Of a stretch of DNA of 64,000 bases, positions 6,531-54,951 are shown in pieces. Source of the stretch: a virus (lineage: Duplodnaviria; Heunggongvirae; Uroviricota; Caudoviricetes); the IMG/VR virus record IMGVR_UViG_3300028887_000066, positions 243,550 through 307,549 of that record. The stretch is one strand, 5' to 3'. The first letter of the stretch is position 1, and each line of letters begins with the position of its first letter. A program made the position numbers and the translations under genes. A model generated the notes under the pieces. That model had not been told where the DNA came from. It searched no databases and worked only from the letters and a program-made list of their open reading frames with translations.

Positions 6531-6857
6531 ATCTTCCGTCATATGTTCTATTTCTAACGATTCAAATGAATAGGCATTGACACCATCAAAAGCCTTTTTT
6601 AAATGCTGCATTATGATGGCCCATTTACTATCCGCACGTCCCCTTATCTCATCCTGTTTTCCAACTTTTTGCCAAATATTCATTGCAGCTTTTATATGGG
6701 CCATTGCTTTGTCACAATTGTTGTAAAGCTGATTAGGTTCTGCATTACGCATATGGTTCCCCTCATTAACTATTTTTTTAACAGACGCTTTTATTATCTC
6801 ATGTAATTCTGATTCCTTTATTTTCATTGTATTTTTCATTTTTATTTTAATCCCCAA
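6522..6857 (-). CDS. hypothetical protein carrying the shared N-terminal leader (KESELHEIIKASVKKIVNE)
   Basis: ORF; N-terminal motif shared with 15744-16358, 19880-20695 and 21265-21909. Confidence 0.55.
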   Translation of the reverse strand: MGIKIKMKNTMKIKESELHEIIKASVKKIVNEGNHMRNAEPNQLYNNCDKAMAHIKAAMNIWQKVGKQDEIRGRADSKWAIIMQHLKKAFDGVNAYSFESLEIEHMTEDKK

Positions 6858-6860
6858 ACA

Positions 6861-7145
6861 TTATTTTTCTGTACATATTTCCAAAATATCTTCAGCCATT
6901 GATTTCGCCAAATTTTTCGGTAATCTAAAATCGCTGAACTTATGTCCATACATACTGAAATATATACTTATATATTTCTCATCATTATCTAATGAATATT
7001 CTATGTTTTCATCACCATAGAAATCATTTTCCTTTAATATATTTGAACCATGCGTAAGGTTCTCTCCATCTTGGGTATGCAAGGTTTCTTTCGTTTTCAT
7101 ACGCTTCTCTCTCAAATGATATATTCCTGTAGGCTTTATGCCCAT
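6861..7145 (-). CDS. hypothetical protein (94 aa; start uncertain, overlaps 7024-7362)
   Basis: ORF. Confidence 0.35.
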   Translation of the reverse strand: MGIKPTGIYHLREKRMKTKETLHTQDGENLTHGSNILKENDFYGDENIEYSLDNDEKYISIYFSMYGHKFSDFRLPKNLAKSMAEDILEICTEK

Positions 7146-7362
7146 TTAAATATACAAAAAGTTTAATCAGCCATTCAATTCCATACCATATATAGAAAAA
7201 TATGTATAACATGTATTTCATCTGTTCCGTATGAATTGTTTCATGATTAATGTCATACTCATTCAATTCCCTTTTCGCATCGCTTCTTACAAACAGCACA
7301 CCAAAAAGGTTTATTGCCAAATAACCTTTAAATGGTATTATTTTGTTCTTAACTATTTTCAT
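7024..7362 (-). CDS. small membrane-associated protein with HExxH motif (NHETIH); putative metallopeptidase-like
   Basis: HETIH plus a hydrophobic segment; assignment speculative. Confidence 0.4.
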   Translation of the reverse strand: MKIVKNKIIPFKGYLAINLFGVLFVRSDAKRELNEYDINHETIHTEQMKYMLYIFFYIWYGIEWLIKLFVYLNGHKAYRNISFEREAYENERNLAYPRWREPYAWFKYIKGK

Positions 7363-7375
7363 CTTCTTTCTTGTC

Positions 7376-7386
7376 TTTATCTTTGT
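7376..7386 (+). promoter_or_regulatory. plus-strand -7 box TATCTTTG about 35 nt upstream of the 7420 start
   Basis: tatctttg at 7378-7385 matches the TAnnTTTG consensus. Confidence 0.45.
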
Positions 7387-7419
7387 AATAAATACTTAGG
7401 AAAAAGTATTTATAGACGT

Positions 7420-9174
7420 ATGAAAAAGATAACAATTACTGAATCACAATACAAAAAACTCAAGAAAAACATACTTGAGGGAATCGATTGGTCTAAAAAC
7501 CCAAACGGTACTATTAACATGTCAGTAAATCAGGACATGACAGATAAGGCTAATAGCGGCATGAATAGTGTAGATACCCGTGTATTCGGCAGTAAAAACA
7601 ATGTACTACATGGCGATAATACAGGACATTGGGCAACACATTCACTCTATCAGAACGCCACATCAAAACAGGCTGCAATACAATACTATACGAATGTAGT
7701 TAATTTTGTAAAAAATGGAAGGCAAGGCCAATTAGATGTGCCAGAAAACGTTGAGCCTAAGACTGTTACGGCTGTTAATAAATGGTTTTCAGAGGGTAGA
7801 TCAGACAGATGGATTATTGATGCTGCCACTAAGTCAATCGCCCGTATTCAACAAGAGGCTAACCCATATATAAGCACATTAAACAGAGTGACTTCTACAA
7901 ATTCGGATAAAGTGGCAAGATATACTACGGGTACGGTTACGGGGACTGACGTAAAATATATAGCCCTCTTTACGATGACTGACTTCAATTTTAGTGACGC
8001 TATAAAACACGGTAATGTAAGGCAAAACGGAAACATCGATTCTATCCTTGGTATTACGAAGAGTGAAAGGGAAAAAGGTGACAAGGGTACTGACTATGCC
8101 AATATAGATGTGACATACGATAATAAATATACCCCTGATATTGCCCAAAACTTCTCGCTTAAAAATGTACAGGATGGCCATTATAAACAGCAATACGGAT
8201 TAGGTGATGATAATGGTTATTCAAGTGTTTCCCAGTTCTTGGATAAATCGGTTAATTATGCCGCTTATGCCTTGAAGCAGGAAAACTACCATCCAGATTT
8301 CATTGTCGCACCGCCAAGCTCATCCAAATTCAACCAATACTATTGTACAAATCTCAGTAATAAGTTAGGCGTACCATTTAGACAGGATTTCTTTATAAGG
8401 AATTTGATCAATGTGAAATTCGATAATGGGAGAGACACGCAAGCGATGCTTGAAAAAGGCTTTTCACAGAAGGATATAATGGATTTTGAAAATCAGGTGA
8501 AAAATGTGGCTTACAAAGAGATAGCTTATTTCGTATCTGAACCTATCAGGGAATTAGTCTATTCAAACCAAGCCTTATTCTCAAATATATCATTGGCATT
8601 ACATAGCAGGGAAAAAACACCGATAAATGAGGTATTTGACTGTTTAATGATTTATGTATATAGAACAATAATAAATGCCATTCAGTCAGGCAATGATATA
8701 GTGGAAAAACATCTTGTCCATAATTTTATGGCAAAACAAAACAAGCTGTATCAGAAAAAATACGATTCAACACATATATTTACCCAAATAGTACAGCTTA
8801 TCAATTTGAAAATAGGCAAAAAAGTATTCAATGAGTATATGAAAAAGACATTACAATTAGTAAGACAATACTCAAATACATTGAAAGAGAATGGCTATGC
8901 ACTTCGTTTTGATACGAAAAGAGTCAAAGTAACACAATTCCAAAAGCAATTCCGACCATTCTTGCACAATGTATACATCATTGCTGACAATTACATGAAC
9001 AATGGTGAGCTTATGAAGCAATACAGGAATGCAAAGTTCCTTATATTTGACGAGGATATTAACAGCGGGGCCACCCTCAAACTCTGTATTGATGCCTTAG
9101 AGGAAAAAATACCAGATGCCAACGAAAAGAATATAATGTGTCTTGTAAACGCCTATTCCGCTAAAGGATGGTAA
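7420..9174 (+). CDS. large hypothetical protein (584 aa); C-terminal region has a phosphoribosyltransferase-type motif (FLIFDEDINSGATLK) and a ComF-like D-F-I-V-A-P-P-S-S-S segment
   Basis: Start refined to ATG 7420 (MKKITITESQYKKLKKNILEG). FLIFDEDINSGATL fits the type I PRTase PRPP-binding loop hhhhDDxxxTGxT. Confidence 0.65.
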   Translation: MKKITITESQYKKLKKNILEGIDWSKNPNGTINMSVNQDMTDKANSGMNSVDTRVFGSKNNVLHGDNTGHWATHSLYQNATSKQAAIQYYTNVVNFVKNGRQGQLDVPENVEPKTVTAVNKWFSEGRSDRWIIDAATKSIARIQQEANPYISTLNRVTSTNSDKVARYTTGTVTGTDVKYIALFTMTDFNFSDAIKHGNVRQNGNIDSILGITKSEREKGDKGTDYANIDVTYDNKYTPDIAQNFSLKNVQDGHYKQQYGLGDDNGYSSVSQFLDKSVNYAAYALKQENYHPDFIVAPPSSSKFNQYYCTNLSNKLGVPFRQDFFIRNLINVKFDNGRDTQAMLEKGFSQKDIMDFENQVKNVAYKEIAYFVSEPIRELVYSNQALFSNISLALHSREKTPINEVFDCLMIYVYRTIINAIQSGNDIVEKHLVHNFMAKQNKLYQKKYDSTHIFTQIVQLINLKIGKKVFNEYMKKTLQLVRQYSNTLKENGYALRFDTKRVKVTQFQKQFRPFLHNVYIIADNYMNNGELMKQYRNAKFLIFDEDINSGATLKLCIDALEEKIPDANEKNIMCLVNAYSAKGW

Positions 9175-9443
9175 AAATCATACAGTTTCTTGAAGAAAGA
9201 TGTATTACCATATATTTCAGACATTAAATCATCCTGAAAATAGGAGTAGTCGTCAATACATTCGTTTCCGAACATGTCAGTATCATAACGGTATGATTTG
9301 ACAAAATCGGAAACGATTTTTTTCGCCTCTTTACGAAAGAGCTTCAAATCTTTTCCTTCTATAGTAAATTCATCAGTAGCCTTCTCTTCGATTCCCTCAA
9401 GGCACTCTTTGATCAATTCCCTTTTATTCAATTTTTTTCCCAT
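9153..9443 (-). CDS. hypothetical protein (start refined to internal Met)
   Basis: The promoter-like caaagata box at 9459-9466 lies inside the longer ORF, so Met at 9443 is preferred. Confidence 0.45.
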   Translation of the reverse strand: MGKKLNKRELIKECLEGIEEKATDEFTIEGKDLKLFRKEAKKIVSDFVKSYRYDTDMFGNECIDDYSYFQDDLMSEIYGNTSFFKKLYDFYHPLAE

Positions 9444-9490
9444 TTGTCTCTTGTTTTGACATCGCAAAGATAGGATTTTATTTTCACATG

Positions 9491-9522
9491 AACAAAAAAA
9501 CATTCACTTTTTCAAGTGAATG
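9491..9522 (-). terminator. Rho-independent terminator closing the leftward tRNA transcription unit
   Basis: 9-bp perfect hairpin cattcactt/aagtgaatg followed (minus sense) by TTTTTTTG. Confidence 0.7.
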
Positions 9523-9534
9523 CTATGATATTAG

Positions 9535-9616
9535 ACTCCGTAGTTGGATTTGAACCAACGTGTGCAACGCAAATGGTTTTGCAGACCATCCCTATCGACC
9601 CCTCAGGCATACGGAG
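9535..9616 (-). tRNA. tRNA, type II-like (13-nt variable arm), apparent anticodon GCA (Cys)
   Basis: Manual fold: acceptor CTCCGTA/TACGGAG, anticodon stem ATGGT/ACCAT with loop CTGCAAA, variable arm TTGCGTTGCACAC, T-arm GTTGG-TTCAAAT-CCAAC. Confidence 0.55.
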
Positions 9617-10035
9617 GTAAAAATTCTAAAACATTACGTTTCATTCGGCGAAACCGTATAACGCTTGTTTTTAATGAACAAGTGATGAAACTTATCCGAC
9701 GTATCGGAAAGGACAAACCATTTGTACGTTTTCCATCAGCCGTAACGCTTTAGGAGGATTTCCTGGTAATCTTGCTCGGTTTCATTAAGCATCCTCGGGC
9801 CCAACTACATTCCCTATTCCACCTTTACCGTCTACACCGTGGTCAAATGGAAAAAACCACGATATGCTTCTCTCTTAACGTCTTTTCTAGGATAGACCTG
9901 AGTTTTTCGAACCGCTCCTCCTGCATCTGTCCTGATATGTTTGACAGCACCCATATAAAACTTCGGAGGAGGCAAACTATATAAATATACGCACTCCCTA
10001 GAACACCTACACTGATGTTGTGTAGCCCTATCGTG

Positions 10036-10107
10036 CGGCCTATGCAGGGATCGAACCCGCGACGTTTCCTTTTAGGGAGGACTGCTCTGCCACTGAGCTA
10101 ATAGACC
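10036..10107 (-). tRNA. candidate amber suppressor tRNA (anticodon CUA)
   Basis: Manual fold: acceptor GGTCTAT/ATAGGCC, D-arm GCTC-AGTGGCA-GAGC, anticodon stem GTCCT/AGGAA with loop CCCTAAA (positions 34-36 = CTA, A37), T-arm GCGGG-TTCGATC-CCTGC. C33 instead of U33 is atypical. Confidence 0.5.
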
Positions 10108-11870: not shown

Positions 11871-11885
11871 TTTAACATTGTTTAG

Positions 11886-11972
11886 TAGCGCGTATGGGAT
11901 TCGAACCCATGAGGGCGTTTTATGCCCACTACATTGAAAGTGTAGCGACCTAGACCACTAGTCCAACGCGCC
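11886..11972 (-). tRNA. tRNA with Glu anticodon UUC but an 18-nt stem-loop variable arm (type II architecture)
   Basis: Acceptor GGCGCGT/ACGCGCT, anticodon stem CTACA/TGTAG with loop CTTTCAA, variable arm TGGGCATAAAACGCCCTC (GGGC/GCCC stem), T-arm ATGGG-TTCGAAT-CCCAT. Confidence 0.55.
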
Positions 11973-13316: not shown

Positions 13317-14936
13317 TTATTTTACATATAAATATCTTTTAATTTCCCCTTTTAACGTCTTGGAAAATGGTTTGCCATAAATAATAAAAGACGAAATTTG
13401 CTCATTTACTGGCAATTTACCATTTATTTTTTTCCTTTCATCATCAATAAGACGGCTCATTTCAGATAAATCTTCAAGGGTCTTGAATCTTTTAGCGGAA
13501 GGATAAACAATAGCTTTAAGCCTATTCTCATTTTTGTCAAGATATACAATGGACTCGCTTATAATGCCACTACTGTTAATGATCTCCTCTATTTCTTTGG
13601 GGTTGATGTTTTTCCCGTCATTTTTAATTATGAGATCACTTCTTCCCTCAAGAAATAGATTACCATCCTCGTCAAAATAGCCTACATCGCCTGTTCTCAT
13701 CCATCCATTGTCAAACACCTCATCCGTAGCTTGTTCATTTCCGTAATATCCGAGCATTACATTATCGCCCATCACATATATTTGGTTTCCATCCCTTACC
13801 TCTATCTGCATCCTGGGAGCCGTTTTCCCACAAGAACGAAATATATGTTCGTTTTGATCACTATATGTGATGATAGGTGAGCATTCAGTCATCCCGTATC
13901 CGACTGTAAACGGTATGTGATAGTCAATTAAAGCTCTTTCCACTTCTGCATCCAATTCAGCACCACCTATTATAATTTCATAGAAATTGCCCCCTAAAGC
14001 CGTCTTTATGACACGGCCTATGAGTTTATCCGCCAATGGTTTAAAAAGCCTGTAGAATGGCTTAAAATAAGTTTTATGGATATATTTGAATATATTATCC
14101 CTAATAAGCGTTTCGATTAATAACGGGACGACAATTACTATGCATGGTTTGGTTTTTTTGAATGTGGACAGCATATTTTTTACCGTTAAAGGTTGAGTCA
14201 TGAAATGTACATTTACCCCAAATACAATAGCCCCAAGAAAATCATACATTATACCATACATATGGGCCAACGGTAATAATGAAACTACATTATCTCCAGT
14301 TTTTAACATATGTACCACTTCTAATGCAAACGCTAAATTTGATGATAATGCCCGTGACGGTATCATTACGCCTTTTGGAGAGGACATTGTACCGCTTGTA
14401 TAGTTTATTGAAATTAGCTCGTCAGGTGAATAGTGGTGTATTTTATCACAGAATTCTTCAGCGGTACACCCCTCAAGCTTCATACTACCTATTACATATG
14501 GGAGTTTATTTTCACCTGAAAATAGGAGGCTGAAATCATCCAATGAGTAAACGGCTGACAGTTTTCCGAAACACTCAAGACTATTCTGCATTTCATCCCA
14601 AATCGCTTCTGATATGAATAGGACTTTTGAATCCGAATGCTCTATAAGATGGGTAATCTTATCTGTCGTAAATTCATGCAGAATAGGCACGGCAACAGTT
14701 CCATATGTAGTAGTAGCGAGATATGTTATCCCCCAATTTATTGAGTTCATTCCACAAATAGCCACTTTATCACCCTTTTTAATGTTCAGGCAATCAAACG
14801 CAAACCATAATTGCCGTATACCATAAGCTACATCAGAATAATTAAAAGAACGAATGGGATAATCCGTCATAGATGGAATATCCCAAAACTTTTTGAATGA
14901 TTCTGCTATGTATTGTGAATAGGTAAGGTTATTCAT
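13317..14936 (-). CDS. AMP-dependent synthetase/ligase (long-chain acyl-CoA synthetase-like)
   Basis: AMP-binding motif YTSGTMSSPKGV, GYGMTE, and hinge TGDVGYFDEDGNLFLEGRSDLIIKNDG. Confidence 0.85.
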   Translation of the reverse strand: MNNLTYSQYIAESFKKFWDIPSMTDYPIRSFNYSDVAYGIRQLWFAFDCLNIKKGDKVAICGMNSINWGITYLATTTYGTVAVPILHEFTTDKITHLIEHSDSKVLFISEAIWDEMQNSLECFGKLSAVYSLDDFSLLFSGENKLPYVIGSMKLEGCTAEEFCDKIHHYSPDELISINYTSGTMSSPKGVMIPSRALSSNLAFALEVVHMLKTGDNVVSLLPLAHMYGIMYDFLGAIVFGVNVHFMTQPLTVKNMLSTFKKTKPCIVIVVPLLIETLIRDNIFKYIHKTYFKPFYRLFKPLADKLIGRVIKTALGGNFYEIIIGGAELDAEVERALIDYHIPFTVGYGMTECSPIITYSDQNEHIFRSCGKTAPRMQIEVRDGNQIYVMGDNVMLGYYGNEQATDEVFDNGWMRTGDVGYFDEDGNLFLEGRSDLIIKNDGKNINPKEIEEIINSSGIISESIVYLDKNENRLKAIVYPSAKRFKTLEDLSEMSRLIDDERKKINGKLPVNEQISSFIIYGKPFSKTLKGEIKRYLYVK

Positions 14937-15743: not shown

Positions 15744-16358
15744 TTACTTAACTTTTACTCTTGCCCTGAAATCTTCTATACAAGCATCGATATTATAATG
15801 TACGTCATTGTAATTTCCGACACCATATTTCCTCGCATACTTATTATCTTCTTCCTCATTGTTTCCAAGGGCTTCCTTACGCTGTCTGTCAAATGTGTTT
15901 CCCTTTGTCGGGATATAGCCTCTGAATTTGCTTCCATCCCAATAGACCATGAAAATTACGGGTATTTCCCAATCACCGCCCGCACTAACAATAACGTATG
16001 GCATACCATTATAATCTCTCAAATCGCCAATGTAATCCACATTTTCTGGATCCCATTTTACTTTGGAAATATCATTGAACAAGTCTTTAAGGCTATTCTT
16101 ATGCTCTTTCTTCCAACACTGATTTCTAATGATATTTACAATATCCTTCCATTTAATCTTGCCATTTGCCTCATATTCAACCTCAATGGCGACTTTCTCA
16201 ACATGTTCAGTAAATTCAGTCGGGGTTATTTTAACCCCTGTCCTTCCGCTGCTTGGGAGTTCTACATCCATGTTAACATATTTGTTTTTATTTTCTTTCA
16301 GAACACGCTTAATGGACTCTCTCACTAAGCCTCTCAATTCAGATTCCCTTATCTTCAT
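15744..16358 (-). CDS. hypothetical protein with the shared N-terminal leader (MKIRESELRGLVRESIKRVLKE)
   Basis: ORF; leader motif. Confidence 0.6.
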   Translation of the reverse strand: MKIRESELRGLVRESIKRVLKENKNKYVNMDVELPSSGRTGVKITPTEFTEHVEKVAIEVEYEANGKIKWKDIVNIIRNQCWKKEHKNSLKDLFNDISKVKWDPENVDYIGDLRDYNGMPYVIVSAGGDWEIPVIFMVYWDGSKFRGYIPTKGNTFDRQRKEALGNNEEEDNKYARKYGVGNYNDVHYNIDACIEDFRARVKVK

Positions 16359-17116
16359 TACTCAGACATTTCTTTTTTGCTTTTCTTATACTTCTCCCTT
16401 GGTTTTGGACAAAGTTTTACCAATTTACTGTGCCACTCATTCCAAACGGGCTTGTATTTAACCTTAAAATCATCCCATTTAAAGCCATTTTCAAGGTCTG
16501 TAAAAATATCAGTATATAATGGACGTGCAACATAAAAATCTGTAATAAGCCCGTTTTCGGCAATTTGGCAGGCATACATAAGAAGCCTTATTGAATGAAA
16601 TAGGCTCTTCGCACCACATCTCATGTCCAAATCCTTCTTCACTGTCATTTTTTTCTTCGCTTTTGCAAATGAATTGTTTGACACGCTTCCAAACGACTCA
16701 CGTAGCAACCATTTATTTAACTTGAAGTATTGCCTGTAATCAGCTATTGTCTTTTTATTGTCATCCGTATTATACAACACCTCGTTAGTAAGAAGAATGG
16801 CCTCCAATGCAAAAGGCGTATGCTCATTTATCATATCGATGAAATCACTTTCTCTCACTACTTGCACGTCCGTCTTTGGTACATCCATCATTTCAATGGT
16901 AAATTGATGCAATCGAATATCACATTTTTCATTATCAAATACGCCATCCTGATCAATAAAGTCGGTATCATCAGCTACAACGATAGCCATATCACGATCC
17001 GATTCCTTTGTCATTGTGCCATAAACGGCGGAACCGCGTGAAAACATCGTAAGTCTTTCATTATCTACAAATAACTTTGCTACGCAATCCGCTACATCAT
17101 TACAATTTACTGTCAT
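16358..17116 (-). CDS. nucleotidyltransferase-fold (Pol-beta superfamily) protein
   Basis: GSAVYGTMTKESDRDMAIVV = G-S-x3-G-x5-S-D-x-D; exact subfamily (MNT, OAS/CD-NTase-like) undetermined. Confidence 0.45.
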   Translation of the reverse strand: MTVNCNDVADCVAKLFVDNERLTMFSRGSAVYGTMTKESDRDMAIVVADDTDFIDQDGVFDNEKCDIRLHQFTIEMMDVPKTDVQVVRESDFIDMINEHTPFALEAILLTNEVLYNTDDNKKTIADYRQYFKLNKWLLRESFGSVSNNSFAKAKKKMTVKKDLDMRCGAKSLFHSIRLLMYACQIAENGLITDFYVARPLYTDIFTDLENGFKWDDFKVKYKPVWNEWHSKLVKLCPKPREKYKKSKKEMSE

Positions 17117-18987: not shown

Positions 18988-19245
18988 TTAAGGTTTTTCT
19001 TTGAGTTTTTTAACTAATAAATCCTTGATATTCCCATATGTACGACATCTGACAATTTCAATATTTTTTATTTTAATACCAAGTTTATTTTCACACTCCA
19101 AAGCCGTTTCCATTACTTTTAAGGAATCCAACCCAAGATCATTAAGTAATGAAATATCATCGTTAATTTCTATTTTATTTTCTTTGATCTCCGATTTAAA
19201 TATAGTTTTCAATAAATCGTCAACCTTTTCCTCAAATTCATTCAT
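18988..19245 (-). CDS. acyl carrier protein
   Basis: DLGLDSLKVMETALECENKLGI contains the phosphopantetheine-attachment DLGxDSL motif; start set to Met19 to avoid overlap. Confidence 0.8.
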   Translation of the reverse strand: MNEFEEKVDDLLKTIFKSEIKENKIEINDDISLLNDLGLDSLKVMETALECENKLGIKIKNIEIVRCRTYGNIKDLLVKKLKEKP

Positions 19246-19258
19246 TGGATATAAAAAA

Positions 19259-19801
19259 TTATTCTGCTGTGCTAACTTCATATACTTTGTTTTTACCACC
19301 CTTTTCGGGCTTCATACAAGGAATAAACGCCATTTTCAATGCGTCATAATTCTTGATGTATGTAAAATTGTCAATATATATTGCATCAAACTTGTTTCCG
19401 ATAAAATTTTCAGGTCTTGTCATTACACTTACCTTTATAATATGCCCCTTGTACTGAAGCGTCATGTTCTTTTGGTTCATCCTGATTATTTTAATTGGCT
19501 CAGGATATTCATCTAAAACGCCTTTCAAAGCATCCATCACGGCTTTTGCGGCAGGCAATGAATGGTTCACATGGGCAATATTAAATTCATCTTTTTCATT
19601 GTTTATAATATCGTAAGCCATTTTAGCCACTAATGCCGTTGTCATTCCCGTCTGTCTACTTGAATCGAATGACATTGGGGCATTCTCCCATGCAAGCAAT
19701 AAGCATCGTTGAAGGTCTGACGGGTAGAATTTGCTTTTCTTTCGTGTCTTTTTATCAATAATAGTTACATACTTTTCAATAAATTCCAATATATTCATCA
19801 T
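19259..19801 (-). CDS. hypothetical protein with degenerate P-loop-like motif (SRQTGMTTAL)
   Basis: ORF. Confidence 0.5.
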   Translation of the reverse strand: MMNILEFIEKYVTIIDKKTRKKSKFYPSDLQRCLLLAWENAPMSFDSSRQTGMTTALVAKMAYDIINNEKDEFNIAHVNHSLPAAKAVMDALKGVLDEYPEPIKIIRMNQKNMTLQYKGHIIKVSVMTRPENFIGNKFDAIYIDNFTYIKNYDALKMAFIPCMKPEKGGKNKVYEVSTAE

Positions 19802-23248: not shown

Positions 23249-24359
23249 TAATCGGTATTTCGTATGTAGAAATGTTATCCTCTACAATATAATTCTCATT
23301 GATGCTTGTTACAACATGCGGGTTAGCAAGATAACTGTCAATAGGACGCTTGATTTTTTTATAGTAAAGGAAATTCTCAGGATGCATAACATCCATATAT
23401 GTGCGGTATACCATAATACCAATATCTTCTGCCGTGCGAGTCTCCTTATATTTTTCTTGCCTATCAAAACCGTAGTCATCAATATTGAATTTCTTTTCCA
23501 ATTTGAGTGCGAGTTCAACCCGTTGTTCTGGCGTATCAATCGGAACACCATTTTCCACTTCACATTTAACGGCCTTTGCTATATCCTCATAATAGACATT
23601 ATGACTATAGTCACGCACCCAAGAATCAAAATATTCAATATATTGTTCCTTACCGTCGAAATTAACCTTACACCATTTATGTGCCTTTGAGTCAAAACAG
23701 TTAGCCAGATCTTCCCAACAAAAATATGATTCGAAATCACTTGCATAATAATAACTGTTTTTGTGTGATTCCTCGCTGCTCCATTCACTTATGAATTTAA
23801 TTTCGCCATTTTCAAGAACAGGCTCTATATTTGTAAAACCACGAAGAGTCTTTATGTTAGTAACATTCCTGTCTTTCAAAAAACGCATCAGTAAATCAAT
23901 GGGGTCGAACAAATCCTGTAGATGCAAATCACAATGGAAATTCATATGCCCCCAATTTAAACGGTCAAATATTTCCCGCCTAATATCTTTGGCGATAAAA
24001 TCTTTTCTGTTCTGACTTAATCGGTTATAACCGTGTGTTGCGATTTCGCCTGAATGCATTGCAGCATATGTATGACGGCCAAGCCCATAATGGAATGACA
24101 ACCATATAAGATCATCTACCTTAGATGTCGGCAATACTTTTAATGGGGCAGACTTCTTACGACGTTTCTTCAAAAACTCCCTGAACTCAGCGACTAATTG
24201 ATGATATTCCTCAGAGTCAAAATCTACATTGAAATATTCGTCTTCTCGTTCATTTTTCAACCCTATTGCATATCGATACGACATCCATACTAAATCTTCC
24301 GCATACATGTCGTCAAAATCATTCTTTTTCTTCTTAGTCATTATTTTCTGTTTTTTCAA
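23238..24359 (-). CDS. hypothetical protein (373 aa)
   Basis: Long ORF. Confidence 0.6.
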   Translation of the reverse strand: MKKQKIMTKKKKNDFDDMYAEDLVWMSYRYAIGLKNEREDEYFNVDFDSEEYHQLVAEFREFLKKRRKKSAPLKVLPTSKVDDLIWLSFHYGLGRHTYAAMHSGEIATHGYNRLSQNRKDFIAKDIRREIFDRLNWGHMNFHCDLHLQDLFDPIDLLMRFLKDRNVTNIKTLRGFTNIEPVLENGEIKFISEWSSEESHKNSYYYASDFESYFCWEDLANCFDSKAHKWCKVNFDGKEQYIEYFDSWVRDYSHNVYYEDIAKAVKCEVENGVPIDTPEQRVELALKLEKKFNIDDYGFDRQEKYKETRTAEDIGIMVYRTYMDVMHPENFLYYKKIKRPIDSYLANPHVVTSINENYIVEDNISTYEIPINEG

Positions 24360-24822
24360 CGATGACCAATGCGTGTCTTATAATCTCCCCGTTCATCTTA
24401 TAACCCACTTTATATATGTTAGAAATGCAATTATCGGAAACATCGCCACTGTTTGAGGTGGATACGGCATTATGTATGTCAGGATTGAATTCATCGCCGA
24501 TAGAGCCATATGCTTCGACTCCACATTCTTTCAGTACATTAAATAATTTACTGTAAATCAACTTTATACCTTCACCGTCTGACCCCATTTTATGTGCCAT
24601 TTCACAATCATCGATGACAGTAATTAAAGATAAGATTATTTCTTTTCCTGCCGTATTCCGTATGGTTTCAATTTCCTTCGCCTTTCTCTTCTTGTAGTTA
24701 TCAAATTCGGCTAAAAGCCTAACATACATATCTTGGTAGTCAGGCTGCTTAACCTCTTCATCATTAACTATAACAGGCTGCTCATTTTCAACAGGCATGT
24801 TATTCAACATTGTCTTTAGCAT
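24334..24822 (-). CDS. grpE: GrpE nucleotide-exchange factor
   Basis: LLAEFDNYKKRKAKE .. DEFNPDIHNAV .. GYKMNGEIIRHALVIV align with GrpE's AEFENYRKR and FDP..HEAV..GY..R..RPA.V motifs. Confidence 0.8.
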   Translation of the reverse strand: MLKTMLNNMPVENEQPVIVNDEEVKQPDYQDMYVRLLAEFDNYKKRKAKEIETIRNTAGKEIILSLITVIDDCEMAHKMGSDGEGIKLIYSKLFNVLKECGVEAYGSIGDEFNPDIHNAVSTSNSGDVSDNCISNIYKVGYKMNGEIIRHALVIVEKTENND

Positions 24823-26172: not shown

Positions 26173-26514
26173 CTATTCACGCTGATTATAATTCTTTTCT
26201 ACGTATTCCCACAATTTTTCATCTGTTGAAAGGTCTATGGGTGTACCGTCCTTTTCCCAAGCAAAATATTCCTTTTCTTCATTTCCGCTTTTCTTGCTCT
26301 TCTCCAACAGACGAGGAGCATCATACAACGCCCACGAAATCCAATCCCATCCATCTTCTCCGTAGGCTTCTGTAAATGCCAATGCCTGCAACGCCCAATA
26401 TGACTTGCACAATTCAGTGTCAATAATGTCAATTCCGAGCTTTCTCAATGTTTCAATATCATTATCCGTTTTGCGGATAGTATCAAGCACCTCTTTGAAT
26501 TTCTCTAATTTCAT
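26173..26514 (-). CDS. hypothetical protein (113 aa)
   Basis: ORF. Confidence 0.5.
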   Translation of the reverse strand: MKLEKFKEVLDTIRKTDNDIETLRKLGIDIIDTELCKSYWALQALAFTEAYGEDGWDWISWALYDAPRLLEKSKKSGNEEKEYFAWEKDGTPIDLSTDEKLWEYVEKNYNQRE

Positions 26515-27026
26515 GCCTTAATATATTTAGTATCTACAAACTTAGTGAGCCAAACTCCATTGTTACTCAAATAAAACTTGTTTCCGTCGTTATGCATCGT
26601 TTTTGCGTCAATTACCAATACAATTGGCTTACCGTGCCTCTTTCCTACATTAATGGCAGTATCCGCATCAGCGGACAAATGTACATGCAGCCTTGTTCCG
26701 CTGTTTATTCCGCTTTTCATAATGGAATCCAAAAAACGTGTAGCCGTACCGTGATATAATGTATCAGGAGGTGTCATTTCCTTCAATTCCACATTAACTT
26801 CCACACTATGCCCTTGTCTTGCACGGATATATTTTCTGTCTTCAGAATACTCAAATCGTTTTTTGTTGTTAGTTTCAACGATTTCATCAAGTATTTCAGG
26901 TGTATAGCCGTGATTTCTTAACAAATCATCAACCTCACGCCAACCATGCTCGTCAAATTTATACTCTTTATCGTGTCTGAGAAGAAAAGCTAATTCCTTA
27001 CCTTTTTCAATTACTATATTTTTCAT
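26511..27026 (-). CDS. kptA: RNA 2'-phosphotransferase (Tpt1/KptA family)
   Basis: LRHDKEYKFDEHGW..KKRFEYS..IRARQGHSVEV..LYHGTATRFLDSI..RLHVHLSADADTAINVGKRHGKPIVLVIDA..GVWLT match Tpt1 conserved blocks. Confidence 0.85.
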   Translation of the reverse strand: MKNIVIEKGKELAFLLRHDKEYKFDEHGWREVDDLLRNHGYTPEILDEIVETNNKKRFEYSEDRKYIRARQGHSVEVNVELKEMTPPDTLYHGTATRFLDSIMKSGINSGTRLHVHLSADADTAINVGKRHGKPIVLVIDAKTMHNDGNKFYLSNNGVWLTKFVDTKYIKA

Positions 27027-27750
27027 TTTTGCCCAAATTTTTTACGGCATTTTCGCCATTTAACACAAATTCATATTCCGTTTTTTTAATTTCCGAAAAC
27101 CCCATACTTTTAGCCTTGGAAAGAAAATCATCTTTATCTTTCTCATTGATGTGGATTGTCGTACCTGTAACTTCAGAAAATATTTGGCCTACTTCCTCTG
27201 CATCACAGACTATTTTGACATTTCTATTTTTATCCATAGACGAGAATAACGATACAAACATTGCATTTTCATAACGTCCATTTTCATCTTTTGTGATATT
27301 TGTAGTCAATATTTTCTTCTCAATATCAGACAACTCACCAAAACCCAAATATGTATGGTACTCATTCACCTTTTCAAAAGTATCGGCATTGTATATGAAA
27401 TTCCTACATATCTTCTGACCGCTATTCAGGAAATTGATCAATATTTCTGTTCCATTCTTTGTCGCTTCGTCTTTATTCCTTGCCCAAAGTACGACATTAG
27501 CCTCAAATGGTGAATTCACTATTAGTGTGGGGTATGGGTAGTCATAGGAACCCATCAGTCTTGTCTCCTGTTCAATCTTATCAAAAATGACAACAAACAA
27601 AAACTCATCATTCACCTTGTCTTTAACCTCATATTCTTGTATATAGCCAACGCCAACACGTTTCACCATTTCTTCGGCTAACTCCATTGTGCTGAATGCT
27701 TCATTCACATCATAGTGAAATCCCTCATATCTTACAGTATAAACTTTCAT
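27007..27750 (-). CDS. hypothetical protein (start at MKVYTV)
   Basis: ORF. Confidence 0.55.
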   Translation of the reverse strand: MKVYTVRYEGFHYDVNEAFSTMELAEEMVKRVGVGYIQEYEVKDKVNDEFLFVVIFDKIEQETRLMGSYDYPYPTLIVNSPFEANVVLWARNKDEATKNGTEILINFLNSGQKICRNFIYNADTFEKVNEYHTYLGFGELSDIEKKILTTNITKDENGRYENAMFVSLFSSMDKNRNVKIVCDAEEVGQIFSEVTGTTIHINEKDKDDFLSKAKSMGFSEIKKTEYEFVLNGENAVKNLGKNEKYSN

Positions 27751-27771
27751 AAGACAAATATACAAAACTTT

Positions 27772-28452
27772 TTATTCGGAATAGCAATATACCAATGTCA
27801 AATGATTCATGTGAACCACTTTCTTAGCTTTTTCAATATCTAAGCCCATCTCATCTATCTTTTTATCATACTCCCATCTGTTAAATGGTTTCGTAATTAG
27901 ATGAATTCCTGTTCTTGTTTTAAAATGTGTAAGTACATTTTCATTATACGATGGTGAACATTGGCAAATAACAGACTTGTATCTTTCAATCTTATCCATA
28001 TCGATGATTTCTCCGTCTTTTACACAATCATCAATGTCGATTACCCATTTTTTATCATCCCTCTCAAGATATTTTCCAGAACAACTGTTGAATATCTTCC
28101 ACGGACGACGAAAATCTGAGCATCCTACACGCCTTATGAGTTCCTGCGCCGTATTTATCATTACTTGCTTACCGTCTTTTATATTAACAGAGCCATATGC
28201 CCTCATTCTCATTACGTCACATAACAGAATAATCTCAGGCATAGCCTTACGCAATTCCTCAATACTTTGAATGTAGTAGTTTTTAAAATGAACGTTAACG
28301 GCTGAAAGATTCGGGTTATCCTTTCCTCTTCTCATTACCTCTATCACATAGTATTTCGGGGTAAAATTCCTGTTATAATTTATTGTTTCTGGAATTCCAT
28401 TATCTCTTAAAAAATCCTCGTATGCCTTAAAATTATCAACTTTCATAAACAA
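27772..28452 (-). CDS. hypothetical protein (226 aa)
   Basis: ORF. Confidence 0.55.
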   Translation of the reverse strand: MFMKVDNFKAYEDFLRDNGIPETINYNRNFTPKYYVIEVMRRGKDNPNLSAVNVHFKNYYIQSIEELRKAMPEIILLCDVMRMRAYGSVNIKDGKQVMINTAQELIRRVGCSDFRRPWKIFNSCSGKYLERDDKKWVIDIDDCVKDGEIIDMDKIERYKSVICQCSPSYNENVLTHFKTRTGIHLITKPFNRWEYDKKIDEMGLDIEKAKKVVHMNHLTLVYCYSE

Positions 28453-37013: not shown

Positions 37014-37847
37014 TTATATTCGATCGGGTATAAATTTGACAATCTTACCGTTTTCTATTGTAAATAATTGTTTACAGTCAAGACAGGCAAAATACTTATC
37101 GATTATTGGCTCCGCAAGTTTATCCGTATACCCATTTGCATATATTTCTTTTTCCATTTCGTATGAAATACGCTGTGAATGCCCGAAAACTTGATACCAC
37201 CCTCTGAATTCATAACTATAGGGTGTTAGCTCATCCCAATGCGCCCAAATAAACGAGCCATACGGATAACGCCCGCCGCGTGATCTCGATACTGTACCAA
37301 GTGGGGCGATAATACTGTCAATATTATCTGACAATGCCTTATTTAGTGTATCGGCAATATCAGGAATATTAGCAGGCTTTTTGAATATTTTTGGGAGTTT
37401 GTCGTACTTTTGCCGTGTATTAACGTATTCTATCCATTTTTTCAATAAACAACTGTGAGAAAATAAGAATTTCTGCCCATCCTGTTCAGTGTACCATATT
37501 AGACTAAACTTCGACATGTTTTCATGAAACATTGCCCTGATGTCGTCAAGATGTTTATAATCAGTACGACAAGCAGGCATATCGTCGCTTATATAGGGGC
37601 CGAAATCGTGATTTCCTAACAATAATAGCACATTATCAGGAAATTTGTCCTTAAAATCAAGTATTTCTTCAAAATTGGCTATAGCATCTTCTTTTGTTAT
37701 ACCTTCCCAAGGATATGGATCCAAATAATCCCCAAGAAAAACCACAAACGCATTAGAATGTTCTTTAACATATTCTACCACAGGTTTCCAAAATGTGCGG
37801 CCATGTACATCAGGGACTATAATTATCTTTCTTTCTTTACTGTTCAT
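37014..37847 (-). CDS. calcineurin-like metallophosphoesterase (PPP/ApaH-lambda phosphatase-like)
   Basis: VPDVHG, FLGDYLD and GNHD motifs. Confidence 0.85.
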   Translation of the reverse strand: MNSKERKIIIVPDVHGRTFWKPVVEYVKEHSNAFVVFLGDYLDPYPWEGITKEDAIANFEEILDFKDKFPDNVLLLLGNHDFGPYISDDMPACRTDYKHLDDIRAMFHENMSKFSLIWYTEQDGQKFLFSHSCLLKKWIEYVNTRQKYDKLPKIFKKPANIPDIADTLNKALSDNIDSIIAPLGTVSRSRGGRYPYGSFIWAHWDELTPYSYEFRGWYQVFGHSQRISYEMEKEIYANGYTDKLAEPIIDKYFACLDCKQLFTIENGKIVKFIPDRI

Positions 37848-44853: not shown

Positions 44854-45651
44854 TTATCTTTTTGGTATAATGTTCAATTGATCAAAATATTCGTTAGTAA
44901 ACAATTCAGCATAATGGGCTTTCCATATGCTCCTTTCATATGAAACAGGTTCACCTTTTATTGTCGTGTTAAATGTTTCTGTTTCCTTGTATACGATACG
45001 CCCGTACTTCTTTCCATTATCCAACGCATTCCAATCGACATCCTTCTCATTGTTCAACAATTCAATTTGTTCATCGGCTTTCAAACCCACAAGTCTTTTA
45101 TGCGGAAGATATGTCTGTGCAGTCTGTTGTTTTGAATTACGCAGACAATCGTTCTGTCGATAAAGCAACCACGCAAATACGTCATTATATGTCGGTACTG
45201 TCCATACTTTGCAATCAAATTGTACAATAGGTTCAGATGCTATGATTTGTTTCAAATCATTATTTGAACATGGGACATTACATACTCTAAGTATGTTTAA
45301 TTGATTAAACTTAGCCGTTGCCAATGACGCTATTATCGACTGCATCTTACATAGTCTGAAACCGAAAAATGAATCACTTTCAGGTGTGTCAAAATCGGTA
45401 ATTACAAGACTAATCTCATCAGACTGTACATACGCTGTCTTACAGCCCTGTATTTCCTTACAAAGATATTCAGCCGTCTCATTCATCATACGGATAAATT
45501 CATCGTCAAACGGACGTTCAAAACGCTTTTTGACAAGTTTTGAAAATGAGCGTCCATCAATATGTGCCAGTACATACGAATTTGGCGTAAGTCTATAATC
45601 ATAGATGGATTTATAATACTCCATCCTTTCCTTTAGATTATTAAATTGCAT
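44854..45651 (-). CDS. Thg1-like protein (tRNA-His guanylyltransferase family, 3'-5' nucleotide addition)
   Basis: YVLAHIDGRSFSKLVKKRFERPFDDEFIRMM .. AYVQSDEISLV .. LATAKFN match Thg1 catalytic blocks (RIDGRxF, SDE); start refined to Met at 45651. Confidence 0.8.
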   Translation of the reverse strand: MQFNNLKERMEYYKSIYDYRLTPNSYVLAHIDGRSFSKLVKKRFERPFDDEFIRMMNETAEYLCKEIQGCKTAYVQSDEISLVITDFDTPESDSFFGFRLCKMQSIIASLATAKFNQLNILRVCNVPCSNNDLKQIIASEPIVQFDCKVWTVPTYNDVFAWLLYRQNDCLRNSKQQTAQTYLPHKRLVGLKADEQIELLNNEKDVDWNALDNGKKYGRIVYKETETFNTTIKGEPVSYERSIWKAHYAELFTNEYFDQLNIIPKR

Positions 45652-45753
45652 ATGTTTTTTAATTAATACATTGCAAATATACGGCAAAAAAATAGAACCA
45701 CCAAAATATTTCATTGATGGTTCTATCCATGATTATGAAAAAAGTAAAAAACA

Positions 45754-47628
45754 TTAAACCTCTTCTGCTTTCTGAGTACCCCCTGTAAATCCTGAGAAAA
45801 TATCATTCAGGGGATTTCCATCACCTTGTGGATTACTTCCTTGATACATCTTCTGGGTAATCGGATACCAAGTTTGCTCAAGCTCTTTCTGACAAGTTTC
45901 TACAAGACTGACATCTTTTGCCTCAATCGCCTTCTTTAAAGCCTCAATCTTTGGTGTAAGAGTGTTCTTATCATCATCGGTAAGTTTATCACCCATTTCC
46001 TCCATAGATTTTTCAATAGCAAAAATCAAACCGTCAGCATTGTTTAGTTTATCGGCGTTTTCCTTCTTTTTTCTGTCAGCCTCCGCATTTGCCTCTGCTT
46101 CAGCTTTCATACGCTCGATTTCTTCATCGGTAATACTGCTTTTTGATTCAATAGTGATATGCTGTTCCTTATTAGTCGCTTTATCAACAGCAGTTACACT
46201 CAAAACCCCATTAACATCCATATCAAAAGTGACTTCAATCTGAGGCACACCTTTTCTTGCGGGAGCAATCCCATCAAGATTAAAAATACCTATTGTTTTG
46301 TTGTCTACGGCCATTGGACGATTGCCTTGTAGTACCTTTATTTGTACACCTGGCTGATTATCCTGTGCTGTACTGAAAGTTTGTGATTTTTTGGTAGGTA
46401 TCGTTGTATTAGCCTCAATGATGTTCGTCATAACACCCCCTATTGTCTCGATGCCTAAATTCAATGGTGTCACATCAAGTAACAAAACATCCTTATTATC
46501 ACCAGCGATAATTGAACCTTGAACCGCAGCACCAAGAGCTACAATCTCATCAGGATTGACATTTTTAATAAGCTGAACCCCAAATTCCTTCGTGAGCATT
46601 TCCTGAACATAAGGAATTCGTGTAGAACCACCTACGAGAATAATACCAGTAAGTTCATTCGCCATAATGCCTGAATTTGATAAAGCTGTTTTACCACAAC
46701 CTATAACCTTTTTGATTTCATTTGAAATGAGTTTTTCAAATTTGGCACGTGTAACACTGATATTCAAATGCTGTGGAACCCCGTCTTTAGCGGTAATGTA
46801 TGGAATATTAATATCTGTTGTGGTACTATTTGAAAGCTCCATTTTAGCTTTTTCAGCGGCCTCCACGACACGTGTCATTGCCATAGGATCAACAGAAAGG
46901 TCGATACCTGTATCACTTTTAAATGAATTAACAATGTCGTCACACAAAAGCTTAGTAAGGTCTGAACCTCCACAATACACATCACCATACGAACTCAATA
47001 TCTCAACAACACCATCAGAAATGTCGGCAATGGAGAAATCCAATGTTGAGCCACCGTAATCGGCAACCATATATTTACCACCTTTAGCCATATCAATGCC
47101 AGAAGCAAGAATTGCCGCTGTAGGTTCTGCGACGATACGACGTACATTTAGTCCAGCAATTTGACCAGCTTTAATGGTGGCTTCACGTGCTTCATTATCG
47201 AACATAGCAGGTACGGTAATAACAGCCTCTGTAACCTCCTCCCCAAGATAATCTTCTGCTGTCTTCTTTAATTTTTGAAGTATCATTGCGGAAATTTCTT
47301 CAGGGGAATACTCCCTATCACCAATTGCAATTCTTGGGTAGCCATTAACGTTTTTCACATCATACTCAATATGAGCGAAATTGTCTTTTACATTCTCATA
47401 AGTACCACCCATGAAACGTTTAATAAGAACTACTGTATTCTTGGGGTTGGTGATTGCTTGACGTTGTGCCGAAGCCCCGACCTTGCGTGTTCCGTCTTTA
47501 TCAAAAAATACTACAGACGGAGTTGTCCTATTTCCTTCATCATTGACAATAATCACTGGGCTATTACCCTCCATTACAGAGACTTCGCTAAGGGTACTAC
47601 CCAAATCAATTCCAATAATCTTTCCCAT
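45754..47628 (-). CDS. dnaK: Hsp70 chaperone DnaK
   Basis: [18 protein letters not shown] .. [11 protein letters not shown] .. full-length 624 aa with a C-terminal EEV-like tail. Confidence 0.95.
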
Positions 47629-47654
47629 TTTTACTTTTATTGTTTTTGATAAAA

Positions 47655-48056
47655 TTAGTTGAACAAATTTTTGACTTTTTCAAACTTATTCTTTAACTCA
47701 TTATTCTCGTTCTGATACTTCTTCAAGATATTCTCAAGCTCCTTGATCTTTGCATCCTTTTCATCAATTAACAACTGCAATTTAGTCACATCTACATCAT
47801 TGGTCTTGTTATTCTCCTTTCCTATTTGAGGTGTTGCTTTTTCATCTTTCAGAACCTTACCGTCTTTCACCTCTTTTTCCTCATGTTCAACCAATTTGCC
47901 ATTCTTATACGTGTTATTCACATAATGGTAATATGATTTGCCGTTGTCATTTTCATTTTTCTTTACTTCTTTCTCAGTCTTTTCAAAGCTATTGTCAAGC
48001 TCTTTCATCAATTCATCGGCTTCCTCAAAGAAAGTCTTAAAAAACTCATTAAACAT
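47655..48056 (-). CDS. coiled-coil Lys/Glu-rich hypothetical protein
   Basis: Start refined to MFNEFFK to abut the upstream gene. Confidence 0.5.
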
Positions 48057-48060
48057 ATTA

Positions 48061-48597
48061 TTAATTATTTTTTTCTTCTTTGTTATTTTCACTATTGTTA
48101 TTAACAACTTCCGTGCCAGATAGTTTTTCAACAATAATTTTACTACCTTCAAATGCCATAATGACAAATTTGTCAGAATTTACTAACATTTTGTCAGAAT
48201 ATACCATTATTTGCTGCTCCTTGCCGTCAAGTTCAATAGTTCCGAGATAGTAGTTTCCATTTACTCTCGTTTCGATAATCCCGATTTTGTTCTTGAATAC
48301 AGAATCAACATCCGTAAACCGATTTTCAACGGTCTCTATCTTTTTTTTTAGCCTGTAATGATATAATAATGATTGTAAGCCTAAAAGTAATACTGCGATA
48401 ACCGCTAATATCAAATAAAAATTCATATTAAACAAACTATTAATACCCAATGCCGCCCATGATGAAAAAACAAGCCCGAATAAAACATCTATCTTTACAA
48501 AACGCATATAAACATCACTATACATTCTATAGTTAATAAACAGCATACTATAGAACAATGTGGTCAGCAATGTGAACAATACTTCATTAGGCATCAT
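48061..48597 (-). CDS. membrane-anchored hypothetical protein (178 aa)
   Basis: Three N-terminal TM helices. Confidence 0.5.
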   Translation of the reverse strand: MMPNEVLFTLLTTLFYSMLFINYRMYSDVYMRFVKIDVLFGLVFSSWAALGINSLFNMNFYLILAVIAVLLLGLQSLLYHYRLKKKIETVENRFTDVDSVFKNKIGIIETRVNGNYYLGTIELDGKEQQIMVYSDKMLVNSDKFVIMAFEGSKIIVEKLSGTEVVNNNSENNKEEKNN

Positions 48598-50384: not shown

Positions 50385-50475
50385 TTCTGTATAAATTTCA
50401 ATCAAAATAAATATACAAAAAATTAGGGATACACAATACTGCATACCCCTTTAATGACTTTCTCTGATCAATGAT

Positions 50476-50811: not shown

Positions 50812-50824
50812 TTTTATTAAACGT

Positions 50825-51304: not shown

Positions 51305-51308
51305 TATA

Positions 51309-52010: not shown

Positions 52011-52035
52011 ATCCTAAATATACAGAAAATACGTT

Positions 52036-52329: not shown

Positions 52330-52349
52330 ATTTTTTACTTTTAATTACA

Positions 52350-52387
52350 ATGCAAAGATAAGACAATTATTTCAAACGGCCAAATCA
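52350..52387 (-). promoter_or_regulatory. Bacteroidetes-type promoter (TTTGGCCGT..20 nt..TATCTTTG) for 52036-52329
   Basis: caaagata 52353-52360 and cggccaaa 52377-52384. Confidence 0.6.
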
Positions 52388-52855: not shown

Positions 52856-52861
52856 ATTTTC

Positions 52862-54945: not shown

Positions 54946-54951
54946 AAATTA

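Follow-up and report, generated by a model that had tools for sequence, protein, structure and literature searches.

A Tpt1/KptA RNA 2'-phosphotransferase in a phage raises the question of where its substrate would come from. Bacteria without a known route to RNA carrying an internal 2'-phosphate often carry Tpt1 (PMC6097658), and the source of the 2'-phosphate substrates of bacterial-type Tpt1 is a question that the Shuman laboratory has raised. The gene in question lies at 26511-27026 in a 64,000-nucleotide stretch of a Caudoviricetes virus (IMG/VR record IMGVR_UViG_3300028887_000066, positions 243,550 to 307,549), and the whole of this stretch is hereafter called the window. A preliminary description, made from the letters alone, had called the gene a phage-borne Tpt1/KptA, had held that its presence implies a ligase pathway with 2'-phosphate junctions, and had offered ADP-ribosylation of 5'-phosphorylated nucleic acids as an alternative role. 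The first of these claims is borne out by matches in Pfam, PHROG and the Protein Data Bank (PDB), by the active site and by the AlphaFold2 (AF2) fold. We further propose, at a rough probability of 0.6, that the enzyme serves a phage RNA (tRNA) repair toolkit against host ribonucleases, in which it would remove the 2'-phosphate from sealed junctions.

The open reading frame (ORF) is the following:

26511-27026, minus strand: Tpt1/KptA, 171 amino acids, ATG at 27026, TGA at 26513-26511

It is complete and intact in the standard code, with no need for stop-codon recoding, and the same 171-residue product was called independently on public contigs of identical sequence. The TGA lies in an ATGA that also holds the start codon of the following ORF, and at the other end 20 nt are shared with the ORF upstream. 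A search with the Pfam profile PF01885 (PTS_2-RNA, Tpt1/KptA), which had been suggested as a check, gave 150.6 bits (E 6.2e-44) over profile positions 6-176 of 177, a full-length match above the curated cut-off of 26. PHROG 5470, "RNA 2'-phosphotransferase", matched with E 3.1e-58. The best PDB sequence match was 7kw8, the Tpt1 of Runella slithyformis (E 4e-45), followed by the Clostridium thermocellum structures 6e3a and 6ede, and pairwise identity is 52.8% to the Runella and 42.8% to the C. thermocellum enzyme. On the strength of these sequence comparisons, the match to Tpt1/KptA is confirmed as lying far beyond chance. The NCBIfam equivalog models for RNA 2'-phosphotransferase (NF002012-15), whose cut-offs range from 231 to 279, gave at best 197.1 bits against a cut-off of 239; this shortfall touches automatic naming and not family membership, and the protein is assigned by its sequence to a divergent phage-associated clade. 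A scan for sigma-70 promoters found sites no more frequently than expected by chance.

Absence of the catalytic R-H-R-R tetrad on careful alignment had been named as the observation that would overturn the assignment. The tetrad is present: pairwise and multiple alignments give R17, H18, R57 and R112, corresponding to R16/H17/R64/R119 in Runella Tpt1 (PMC6097658) and R18/H19/R68/R121 in C. thermocellum Tpt1 (PMC6333775). It is invariant both in an alignment of 17 sequences (megaphage relatives, KptA of the C. difficile phage phiCD211, gp275 of Erwinia phage Alexandra and the two reference enzymes) and in one of 26 close Tpt1 relatives. R68, in YIRARQGHS, was considered as the third arginine and rejected, as alignment to the Runella and C. 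thermocellum enzymes gives R57, in NKKRF; R68 is likewise invariant though outside the tetrad. Of the other residues probed by the Shuman laboratory, K10, K55, Q71, H92-G93-T94, F98, I102 and R130-H131 are also kept. Thus the contacts of the NAD+ lobe are in place (the H92-G93-T94 motif, F98, I102 and the arginine cage of R112 and R130 on the diphosphate), and so are the RNA-lobe residues that contact the junction nucleotide. H131 occupies the position of C. thermocellum R140 and is the same variant as Runella H138. By alignment, all residues that mutagenesis or structure has shown to be important are retained (PMC6097658, PMC6333775).

The AF2 model (predicted local distance difference test, pLDDT, 86.9) has the two lobes of the family, a winged-helix RNA lobe and an NAD+ lobe resembling that of ADP-ribosyltransferases (ART), and its top 22 Foldseek matches in the PDB are all Tpt1/KptA, aligned over ~175 columns. 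The global template-modelling score is only ~0.53 because of the orientation of the lobes and the low-confidence linker between them (residues 73-78). The ORF is therefore predicted, by homology, to encode a catalytically competent Tpt1/KptA.

That the gene is phage-encoded is well supported. Positions 16511-37026 of the window (20.5 kb) are 100% identical to a 355,767-bp metagenomic contig at JGI, 3300031993 Ga0310696_10000012, and positions 46056-64000 are 98.7% identical to a 353,808-bp ENA contig from another sample (L035; L numbers denote the related loci or contigs that we compared with the window). As the two contigs are nearly equal in size, a genome of ~355 kb is suggested. This very Tpt1 protein is encoded, in the same gene order, by 23 contigs that come from many samples, its relatives lie on IMG/VR contigs of 183-380 kb, and the related contig L007 carries a T4-type large terminase; no structural hallmark gene was found inside the 64-kb window itself. 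The window has 35.9% G+C and ~100 tightly packed ORFs in the standard code, nearly all on the minus strand. In genome collections the nearest Tpt1 homologues (60-68% identity) come from contigs that binning assigns to Prevotellaceae and Bacteroidales of the rumen or gut, and the clade as a whole (60-100% identity) is found on ruminant- or gut-derived contigs binned to Bacteroidales/Prevotellaceae; within it, a large group at 60-80% identity keeps every catalytic residue invariant. The Tpt1 proteins of cultured Bacteroidota (Dysgonomonas, Chryseobacterium) are ~52-54% identical to that of the window.

The carrier thus looks like a ~355-kb megaphage of gut or rumen Bacteroidales/Prevotellaceae communities that has few genes in common with the Lak phages; a Prevotellaceae host is only suggested. 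Synteny between Lak-A1 and the window is nearly nil, with two isolated gene matches, and the only nucleotide similarity to GenBank phages is a run of 38 nt shared with Lak phages. This run was considered as a regulatory element and rejected, for it encodes a conserved peptide motif. An exact-sequence look-up of the 647-residue ORF at 7231-9174 returned no record. A cultured Prevotellaceae isolate, Hallella faecis strain CLA-AA-H145, has a short contig of high coverage (L046, 8.9 kb, coverage tag 375) that carries a Tpt1 of the phage clade (68% identical) and an ADP-ribosyl-glycohydrolase (ARH) 99% identical to that of L029; this contig may be a phage or an episome in the culture, and a lead to the host.

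What the gene might do is best seen from its neighbourhoods in the relatives, where co-occurrence with RNA ligase had been proposed for comparison. Such co-occurrence holds within a few kb of Tpt1, although no neighbour is conserved across lineages. In L007 and L077, a PF09414 ligase, a second ligase homologous to a 226-residue protein of the window, a DUF6717 protein, Tpt1 and a Thg1-like protein lie within 7 kb beside the terminase; the 226-residue type is 2 kb from Tpt1 in both, and the Thg1-like gene follows Tpt1 downstream after ~0.65 kb in L007 and ~0.7 kb in L077. In L001-L005, whose Tpt1 is ~70% identical to ours, a PF09414 ligase (E 5e-24) lies 4.6 kb upstream and a metallophosphoesterase ~5 kb downstream. 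The Tpt1-linked PF09414 ligase genes are at 3083-3766 in L007 and at 4699-5367 in L004. Metallophosphoesterases flank Tpt1 in L032 and L033, with a DUF2828/DUF7788 protein upstream and a PHA02142-type putative ligase 3.7 kb away; one of them, 0.85 kb downstream, is a 37%-identical homologue of the window's metallophosphoesterase at 37014-37847. The fullest set is in L040, a 131-kb contig of a 'Prevotella sp.' metagenome-assembled genome, where ligase-like, HD-Pnk-like and RtcB-like genes lie around a Tpt1 fusion that is followed by ARH. The fusion (7977-9500, 507 residues) has Tpt1 as its N-terminal domain, then a middle segment judged NADAR-like by eye, and at the C-terminus a 5'(3')-nucleotidase/HAD domain (PDB 2jao, E 3e-13). 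ARH is also next to or close to Tpt1 in L029-31, L036, L041, L046 and L053, and in L006 the stop codon of Tpt1 lies in its overlap with an isochorismatase (nicotinamidase-like) gene.

A cellular counterpart is found in Dysgonomonas (L074), in the order RtcB, PrfH-like, Tpt1, LIG, HD-Pnk, Nudix and NADAR-like; its LIG shares 44-47% identity with the PF09414 ligases of the phages. This is the Runella type of cluster, which in Runella consists of Tpt1, MTase-HIT, LIG and HD-Pnk (PMC6097658); among the relatives it is seen fully in L040 and in part in L001-L005, L007 and L077. The annotated kptA neighbourhoods of phiCD211 and Alexandra hold mostly hypothetical proteins. Since Tpt1 lies near RNA ligases and end-healing enzymes in the relatives, a role of Tpt1 in RNA repair is well supported by association.

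Two further arrangements stood out in these loci. Just upstream of Tpt1 in L006, a 184-kb viral contig, is the insertion of an IS607-like pair (6549-9316) of a serine resolvase TnpA and a TnpB with a Cas12f1-like TNB domain. In L029 (8536-9849), and also in L030 and L031, a 437-residue protein with an Anticodon_1 domain follows directly downstream of Tpt1, and ARH and NT5C lie on the upstream side. Anticodon_1 is the anticodon-binding domain of class-I aminoacyl-tRNA synthetases, and the arrangement is possibly a tRNA-targeting module.

The window itself encodes several proteins that could act alongside Tpt1:

53322-54002, minus strand: stand-alone ATP-dependent RNA-ligase-like adenylyltransferase, 226 residues, KLDG motif (PF09414, 32.5 bits; PHROG 548, 'RNA ligase')
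44854-45714, minus strand: Thg1-like protein (3'-5' polymerase; tRNA 5'-end repair) (PF04446, E 3.8e-26)
37014-37847, minus strand: calcineurin-like metallophosphoesterase (PF00149; PHROG 8238)
51309-52010, minus strand: second calcineurin-like metallophosphoesterase (PF00149, E 1e-12; PHROG 1649; PDB match MPPED2)
16358-17116, minus strand: Pol-beta-superfamily nucleotidyltransferase, with a homologue ~3-4 kb from the 226-residue ligase family in L008-L012
42651-44006, minus strand: DUF2828/DUF7788 protein (Pfam), with the domains of the protein upstream of Tpt1 in L032/L033
9534-12054, minus strand: eight tRNA genes (Cys, suppressor CUA, two Gln, two Arg, two Glu)
62072-64000, minus strand: start of an NAD+ salvage cluster (precomputed Pfam on L035)
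62072-62674, minus strand: CTP_transf_like adenylyltransferase of this cluster
63107-63736, minus strand: NUDIX protein of this cluster

The ligase is a candidate sealing partner. Its family includes 'RNA ligase [Lak_Megaphage_Sonny]', and it is 60% identical to a gene present in all 15 of the GenBank Lak (Prevotella) megaphages. A PDB sequence search gave no match, so that a fold search was needed; the AF2 model (pLDDT 91.7) has TbREL1, T4 Rnl2, T4 Rnl1 and Naegleria Rnl as its top Foldseek matches. As modelled, the protein has an Rnl2/REL1-like fold and would not be a 2'-phosphate-dependent ligase of the Trl1/Rnl1 type. The Thg1-like protein, which in the PDB comes closest to the 'Thg1-like uncharacterized protein' 4kgk (E 2e-31), is a candidate member of the toolkit. 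The metallophosphoesterase at 37014-37847, whose match to PHROG 8238 covers an internal region of a 737-position 'RNA ligase' profile, is a candidate for healing 2',3'-phosphate ends. NUDIX proteins are also encoded in the window.

The NAD+ salvage genes would supply the co-substrate of Tpt1. The C-terminus of a NAPRTase is cut by the window end, and the cluster continues at 1-3585 of L035 with an NAD synthase and, by a faint match, an isochorismatase-like gene. Taken together, the NAD synthase and the nicotinamidase-like gene point to a deamidated route of the Preiss-Handler type; in phages, NadV with NadM or NadR is the NAD+ route usually described.

The tRNAs were searched for introns, which would call for splicing, and none was found in the eight by ARAGORN -i or Rfam. 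Three of them deserve a line each:

10035-10107, minus strand: suppressor tRNA, anticodon CUA (reads TAG)
9534-9616, minus strand: tRNA-Cys(GCA), 83 nt, passes the Rfam tRNA model
11885-11972, minus strand: tRNA-Glu(UUC), 88 nt, passes the Rfam tRNA model

ARAGORN gives the last two an anticodon stem of 6 bp besides a long variable arm, which is unusual for these acceptors. The suppressor tRNA is a hint that other parts of the genome may reassign TAG, as Lak phages do; recoding within the window was rejected, as its ORFs are intact in the standard code and 14 of the 92 long ORFs end in TAG.

How would these parts work together? By homology, Tpt1 would pass an RNA 2'-phosphate on to NAD+ in two steps, in which the RNA 2'-phosphate attacks NAD+ so that nicotinamide is released and a 2'-phospho-ADP-ribosyl-RNA intermediate arises. 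In the reading that we favour, cleavage of RNA would leave 2',3'-cyclic phosphate and 5'-OH ends, phage phosphoesterases would open the cyclic phosphate, phage ATP-dependent RNA ligases would seal the break, and Tpt1 would take off the 2'-phosphate otherwise left at the junction. NAD+ would then be restored by the phage salvage genes, and in the relatives the ADP-ribose by-product may be disposed of by the ARH, NADAR and HAD neighbours. The substrate, the order of the steps and the partnership with these ligases and phosphoesterases are what we infer. Metallophosphoesterases can indeed open 2',3'-cyclic phosphates to 2'-phosphates (PMC2190708), and the closest characterised homologue, Runella Tpt1, acts on internal 2'-phosphates only, neither healing terminal phosphates nor capping 5'-phosphates (PMC6573784, PMC6182162). 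Runella LIG forms ligase-AMP and does not seal ordinary 3'-OH/5'-phosphate ends (PMC6097658). A link to NAD+ is lent by the salvage cluster in the same genome and by the nicotinamidase-like overlap in L006.

Several observations weigh against this reading. There is no known pathway to internally 2'-phosphorylated RNA in bacteria or phages (PMC6097658). No repair enzyme is among the immediate neighbours of Tpt1 in the window, which are unannotatable ORFs, a UvrD helicase, a DNA methylase and GrpE; the adjoining ORFs at 26173-26514, 27007-27765 and 27772-28452 have no Pfam match and at most a PHROG of unknown function. Upstream lie the UvrD helicase, an N6/N4 DNA methylase, an SPFH protein, a terminator-like hairpin (28518-28477) and two unknown ORFs, and downstream five unknown ORFs and then GrpE. 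None of the toolkit genes of the window adjoins Tpt1, the RNA ligase being 26 kb away. A conserved operon partner was considered and rejected, as the immediate Tpt1 neighbours in six lineages share no similarity. The 226-residue ligase is present in 15 of 15 GenBank Lak phages, and no group of Prevotella phages appeared among the 98 records of the Tpt1 tblastn; therefore this ligase is not obligately Tpt1-dependent. Finally, Pfam scans and precomputed Pfam on the window ORFs, apart from a number of small ones, together with tblastn, turned up neither a 2H cyclic phosphodiesterase (CPDase) nor a polynucleotide kinase, and likewise no HD-Pnk, no RtcB and no LIG of the Runella type, in the 64-kb window, which is 64 of ~355 kb. 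The fungal/plant-type heal-and-seal pair of 2H CPDase and 5'-OH polynucleotide kinase is thus missing from the scanned ORFs, in which the sole P-loop seen is that of an ABC ATPase, and tblastn of the window gave no LIG or HD-Pnk homologue that would make up a Runella-type cluster.

The earlier claim that the presence of Tpt1 implies a ligase pathway with 2'-phosphate junctions therefore stands only in part. The link to RNA repair holds by association in the relatives, but the implication does not follow: Tpt1 is common in bacteria with no known internal 2'-phosphate route, so presence alone implies nothing, and the window has an Rnl2-like ligase whose counterpart occurs in Lak phages that gave no Tpt1 match, with no 2H CPDase or 5'-kinase found. 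A 2'-phosphate junction model for the Tpt1 ligase pathway is plausible.

In a bolder form of this model, which we hold to be doubtful, Tpt1 of this megaphage clade would join with the stand-alone minimal RNA ligases, and with metallophosphoesterases or HD-Pnk as healing enzymes, in what would be the virus's own version of the fungal/plant pathway. It is equally speculative that cyclic-phosphate ends would be opened to 3'-OH,2'-phosphate, that ligation would leave a 2'-phosphate junction and that Tpt1 would erase this mark, and it is with similar reserve that we suggest that the mark might block re-cleavage or act as a quality check. If true, internal 2'-phosphate RNA would for the first time have a natural source in the bacterial world, and the retention of Tpt1 by bacteria and phages would be accounted for.

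Other roles have to be weighed against removal of the phosphate from a sealed junction. In a variant of RNA repair, the model of Iyer, Burroughs and Aravind stated for jumbo phages (PMC7824862, PMC9503650), Tpt1 would take off a terminal 2'-phosphate (or 3'-phosphate) before ligation, and no 2'-phosphate junction would ever form. The Tpt1 enzymes of C. thermocellum, A. pernix and Chaetomium remove terminal 2'-phosphates (PMC6573784), metallophosphoesterases lie near Tpt1 in the relatives, and the Rnl2-like ligase of the window belongs to a class that seals 3'-OH/5'-phosphate ends. However, Runella Tpt1, at 53% identity and sharing the Q71 and H131 variants, is inept or feeble on terminal phosphates, as are E. 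coli KptA and the yeast and human enzymes, and we regard this variant as possible but tentative. Less likely again are the ADP-ribosylation and NADP(H) readings. As an ADP-ribosyltransferase, Tpt1 would cap 5'-phosphorylated RNA or DNA ends, damaging or marking those of the host or protecting those of the phage, and ARH would reverse the cap. This alternative, raised in the preliminary description, is real for a subset of Tpt1 enzymes, which cap 5'-phosphates (PMC6182162), and such caps are reversed by ARH and macrodomain hydrolases (PMC11833690); ARH directly abuts Tpt1 in several relatives. The activity is, however, absent from Runella Tpt1 and from the human enzyme (PMC6182162), no ARH was found adjoining Tpt1 in the window, and the full tetrad, including the step-2 residues, is conserved, all of which makes the role improbable here.

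A metabolic role, in which Tpt1 would act on a non-RNA 2'-phosphate such as that of NADP(H) and so manage the NAD pool of the phage, draws on the finding that archaeal Tpt1 moves the NADP(H) 2'-phosphate to NAD+ (PMC10622864), on the salvage cluster and on the L006 overlap. We consider it still less probable, for each NADP+ converted would cost one NAD+ with no net gain, the activity has been shown for archaeal enzymes only, the RNA-lobe contacts to the junction nucleotide are conserved, and it is chiefly with RNA ligases and end-healing enzymes that the gene is associated in genomes. It is very improbable, lastly, that Tpt1 came in recently as a passenger and does nothing specific in infection: its position and neighbours do differ between lineages and GenBank Lak phages gave no Tpt1 match, but the exact protein recurs with the same synteny on 23 contigs from many samples, and the large clade at 60-80% identity has all its catalytic residues invariant.

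Phage Tpt1 as such is already known. In GenBank, 98 phage records carry a Tpt1 homologue by tblastn, many of them annotated as such, in Erwinia, Dickeya, Klebsiella and Serratia phages (many of them ~260-kb jumbo phages), phiCD211-like phages and phages of Bacillus and Listeria. Iyer et al. (2021, 2022) explicitly discuss KptA of jumbo phages, to which they give an NAD+-dependent clean-up role in RNA repair, and alongside it they treat Thg1, ligase-associated Pol-beta nucleotidyltransferases, TROVE proteins and NAD salvage (PMC7824862, PMC9503650). The Lak and huge-phage papers make no mention of RNA ligase, Tpt1 or NAD. What is new is the carrier, a megaphage lineage of gut and rumen Bacteroidales communities in which Tpt1 had not been pointed out before and which is here added to the phages with Tpt1/KptA. 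A Tpt1 gene in a huge phage is by itself unsurprising; the main value lies in the compact clusters of Tpt1, ligase and healing genes in the relatives, which offer practical material for testing whether 2'-phosphate junctions form in bacterial-type systems, and so for the question of the Shuman laboratory.

Of the known systems, Runella is the nearest: its Tpt1 is of the same length class, with an identical tetrad and the same Q71 and H131 variants, and in the phage relatives a homologue of LIG lies a few kb from Tpt1, with HD-Pnk-like genes also in the vicinity. The differences from Runella are that in the window tblastn gave no homologue of LIG or of HD-Pnk and no repair gene adjoins Tpt1, that the genome is that of a virus, and that the loop between helices in the RNA lobe is shorter. 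The jumbo-phage KptA proteins (PHROG 5470; phiCD211 kptA, Alexandra gp275) are likewise stand-alone Tpt1 proteins of ~170-190 residues, 44-49% identical, from large genomes that also have RNA ligases, tRNAs, Thg1, nucleotidyltransferases and NAD salvage, as here; our gene differs in its phage lineage (an uncultured ~355-kb megaphage), its neighbours and its distinct Tpt1 clade. With fungal and plant Trl1 and Tpt1 it would share the enzyme family, the predicted chemistry and the logic of ligation followed by 2'-phosphate removal, whereas no Trl1-type ligase, 2H CPDase, kinase domain or intron-containing tRNA was found in the window and the phage ligases are minimal PF09414 adenylyltransferases. 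Archaeal KptA/Tpt1, of the same family, erases 2'-phosphouridine-47 of tRNA and acts as an NADP(H) 2'-phosphotransferase, an instance of internal 2'-phosphate arising without a ligase (PMC10622864). Identity to the archaeal structures is 31-36%, and, unlike the archaeal system, the window shows no RNA 2'-kinase of the Ark1 type. We know of no such kinase in bacteria.

Some further genes of the window merit a brief record. It encodes both of the following chaperone proteins, whose genes are 21 kb apart:

24334-24822, minus strand: GrpE, in the same gap-free gene run as Tpt1
45754-47628, minus strand: DnaK (Hsp70), full-length (674 bits)

Directly upstream of the RNA ligase gene, 53986-57584 (minus strand) holds parts of an ABC transporter (ATPase and permease) and a 509-residue protein in which an NMT1-type solute-binding domain is fused to an OmpA domain. 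A 539-residue AMP-binding (adenylate-forming) enzyme at 13317-14936 (minus strand) and, a few kb away, a PP-binding carrier protein at 18988-19299 (minus strand) could be a small acyl- or aminoacyl-carrier system in the phage. Finally, a protein with a GmrSD_N (DUF262) domain, of a family tied to restriction of modified DNA, is phage-encoded at 60178-61080 (minus strand).

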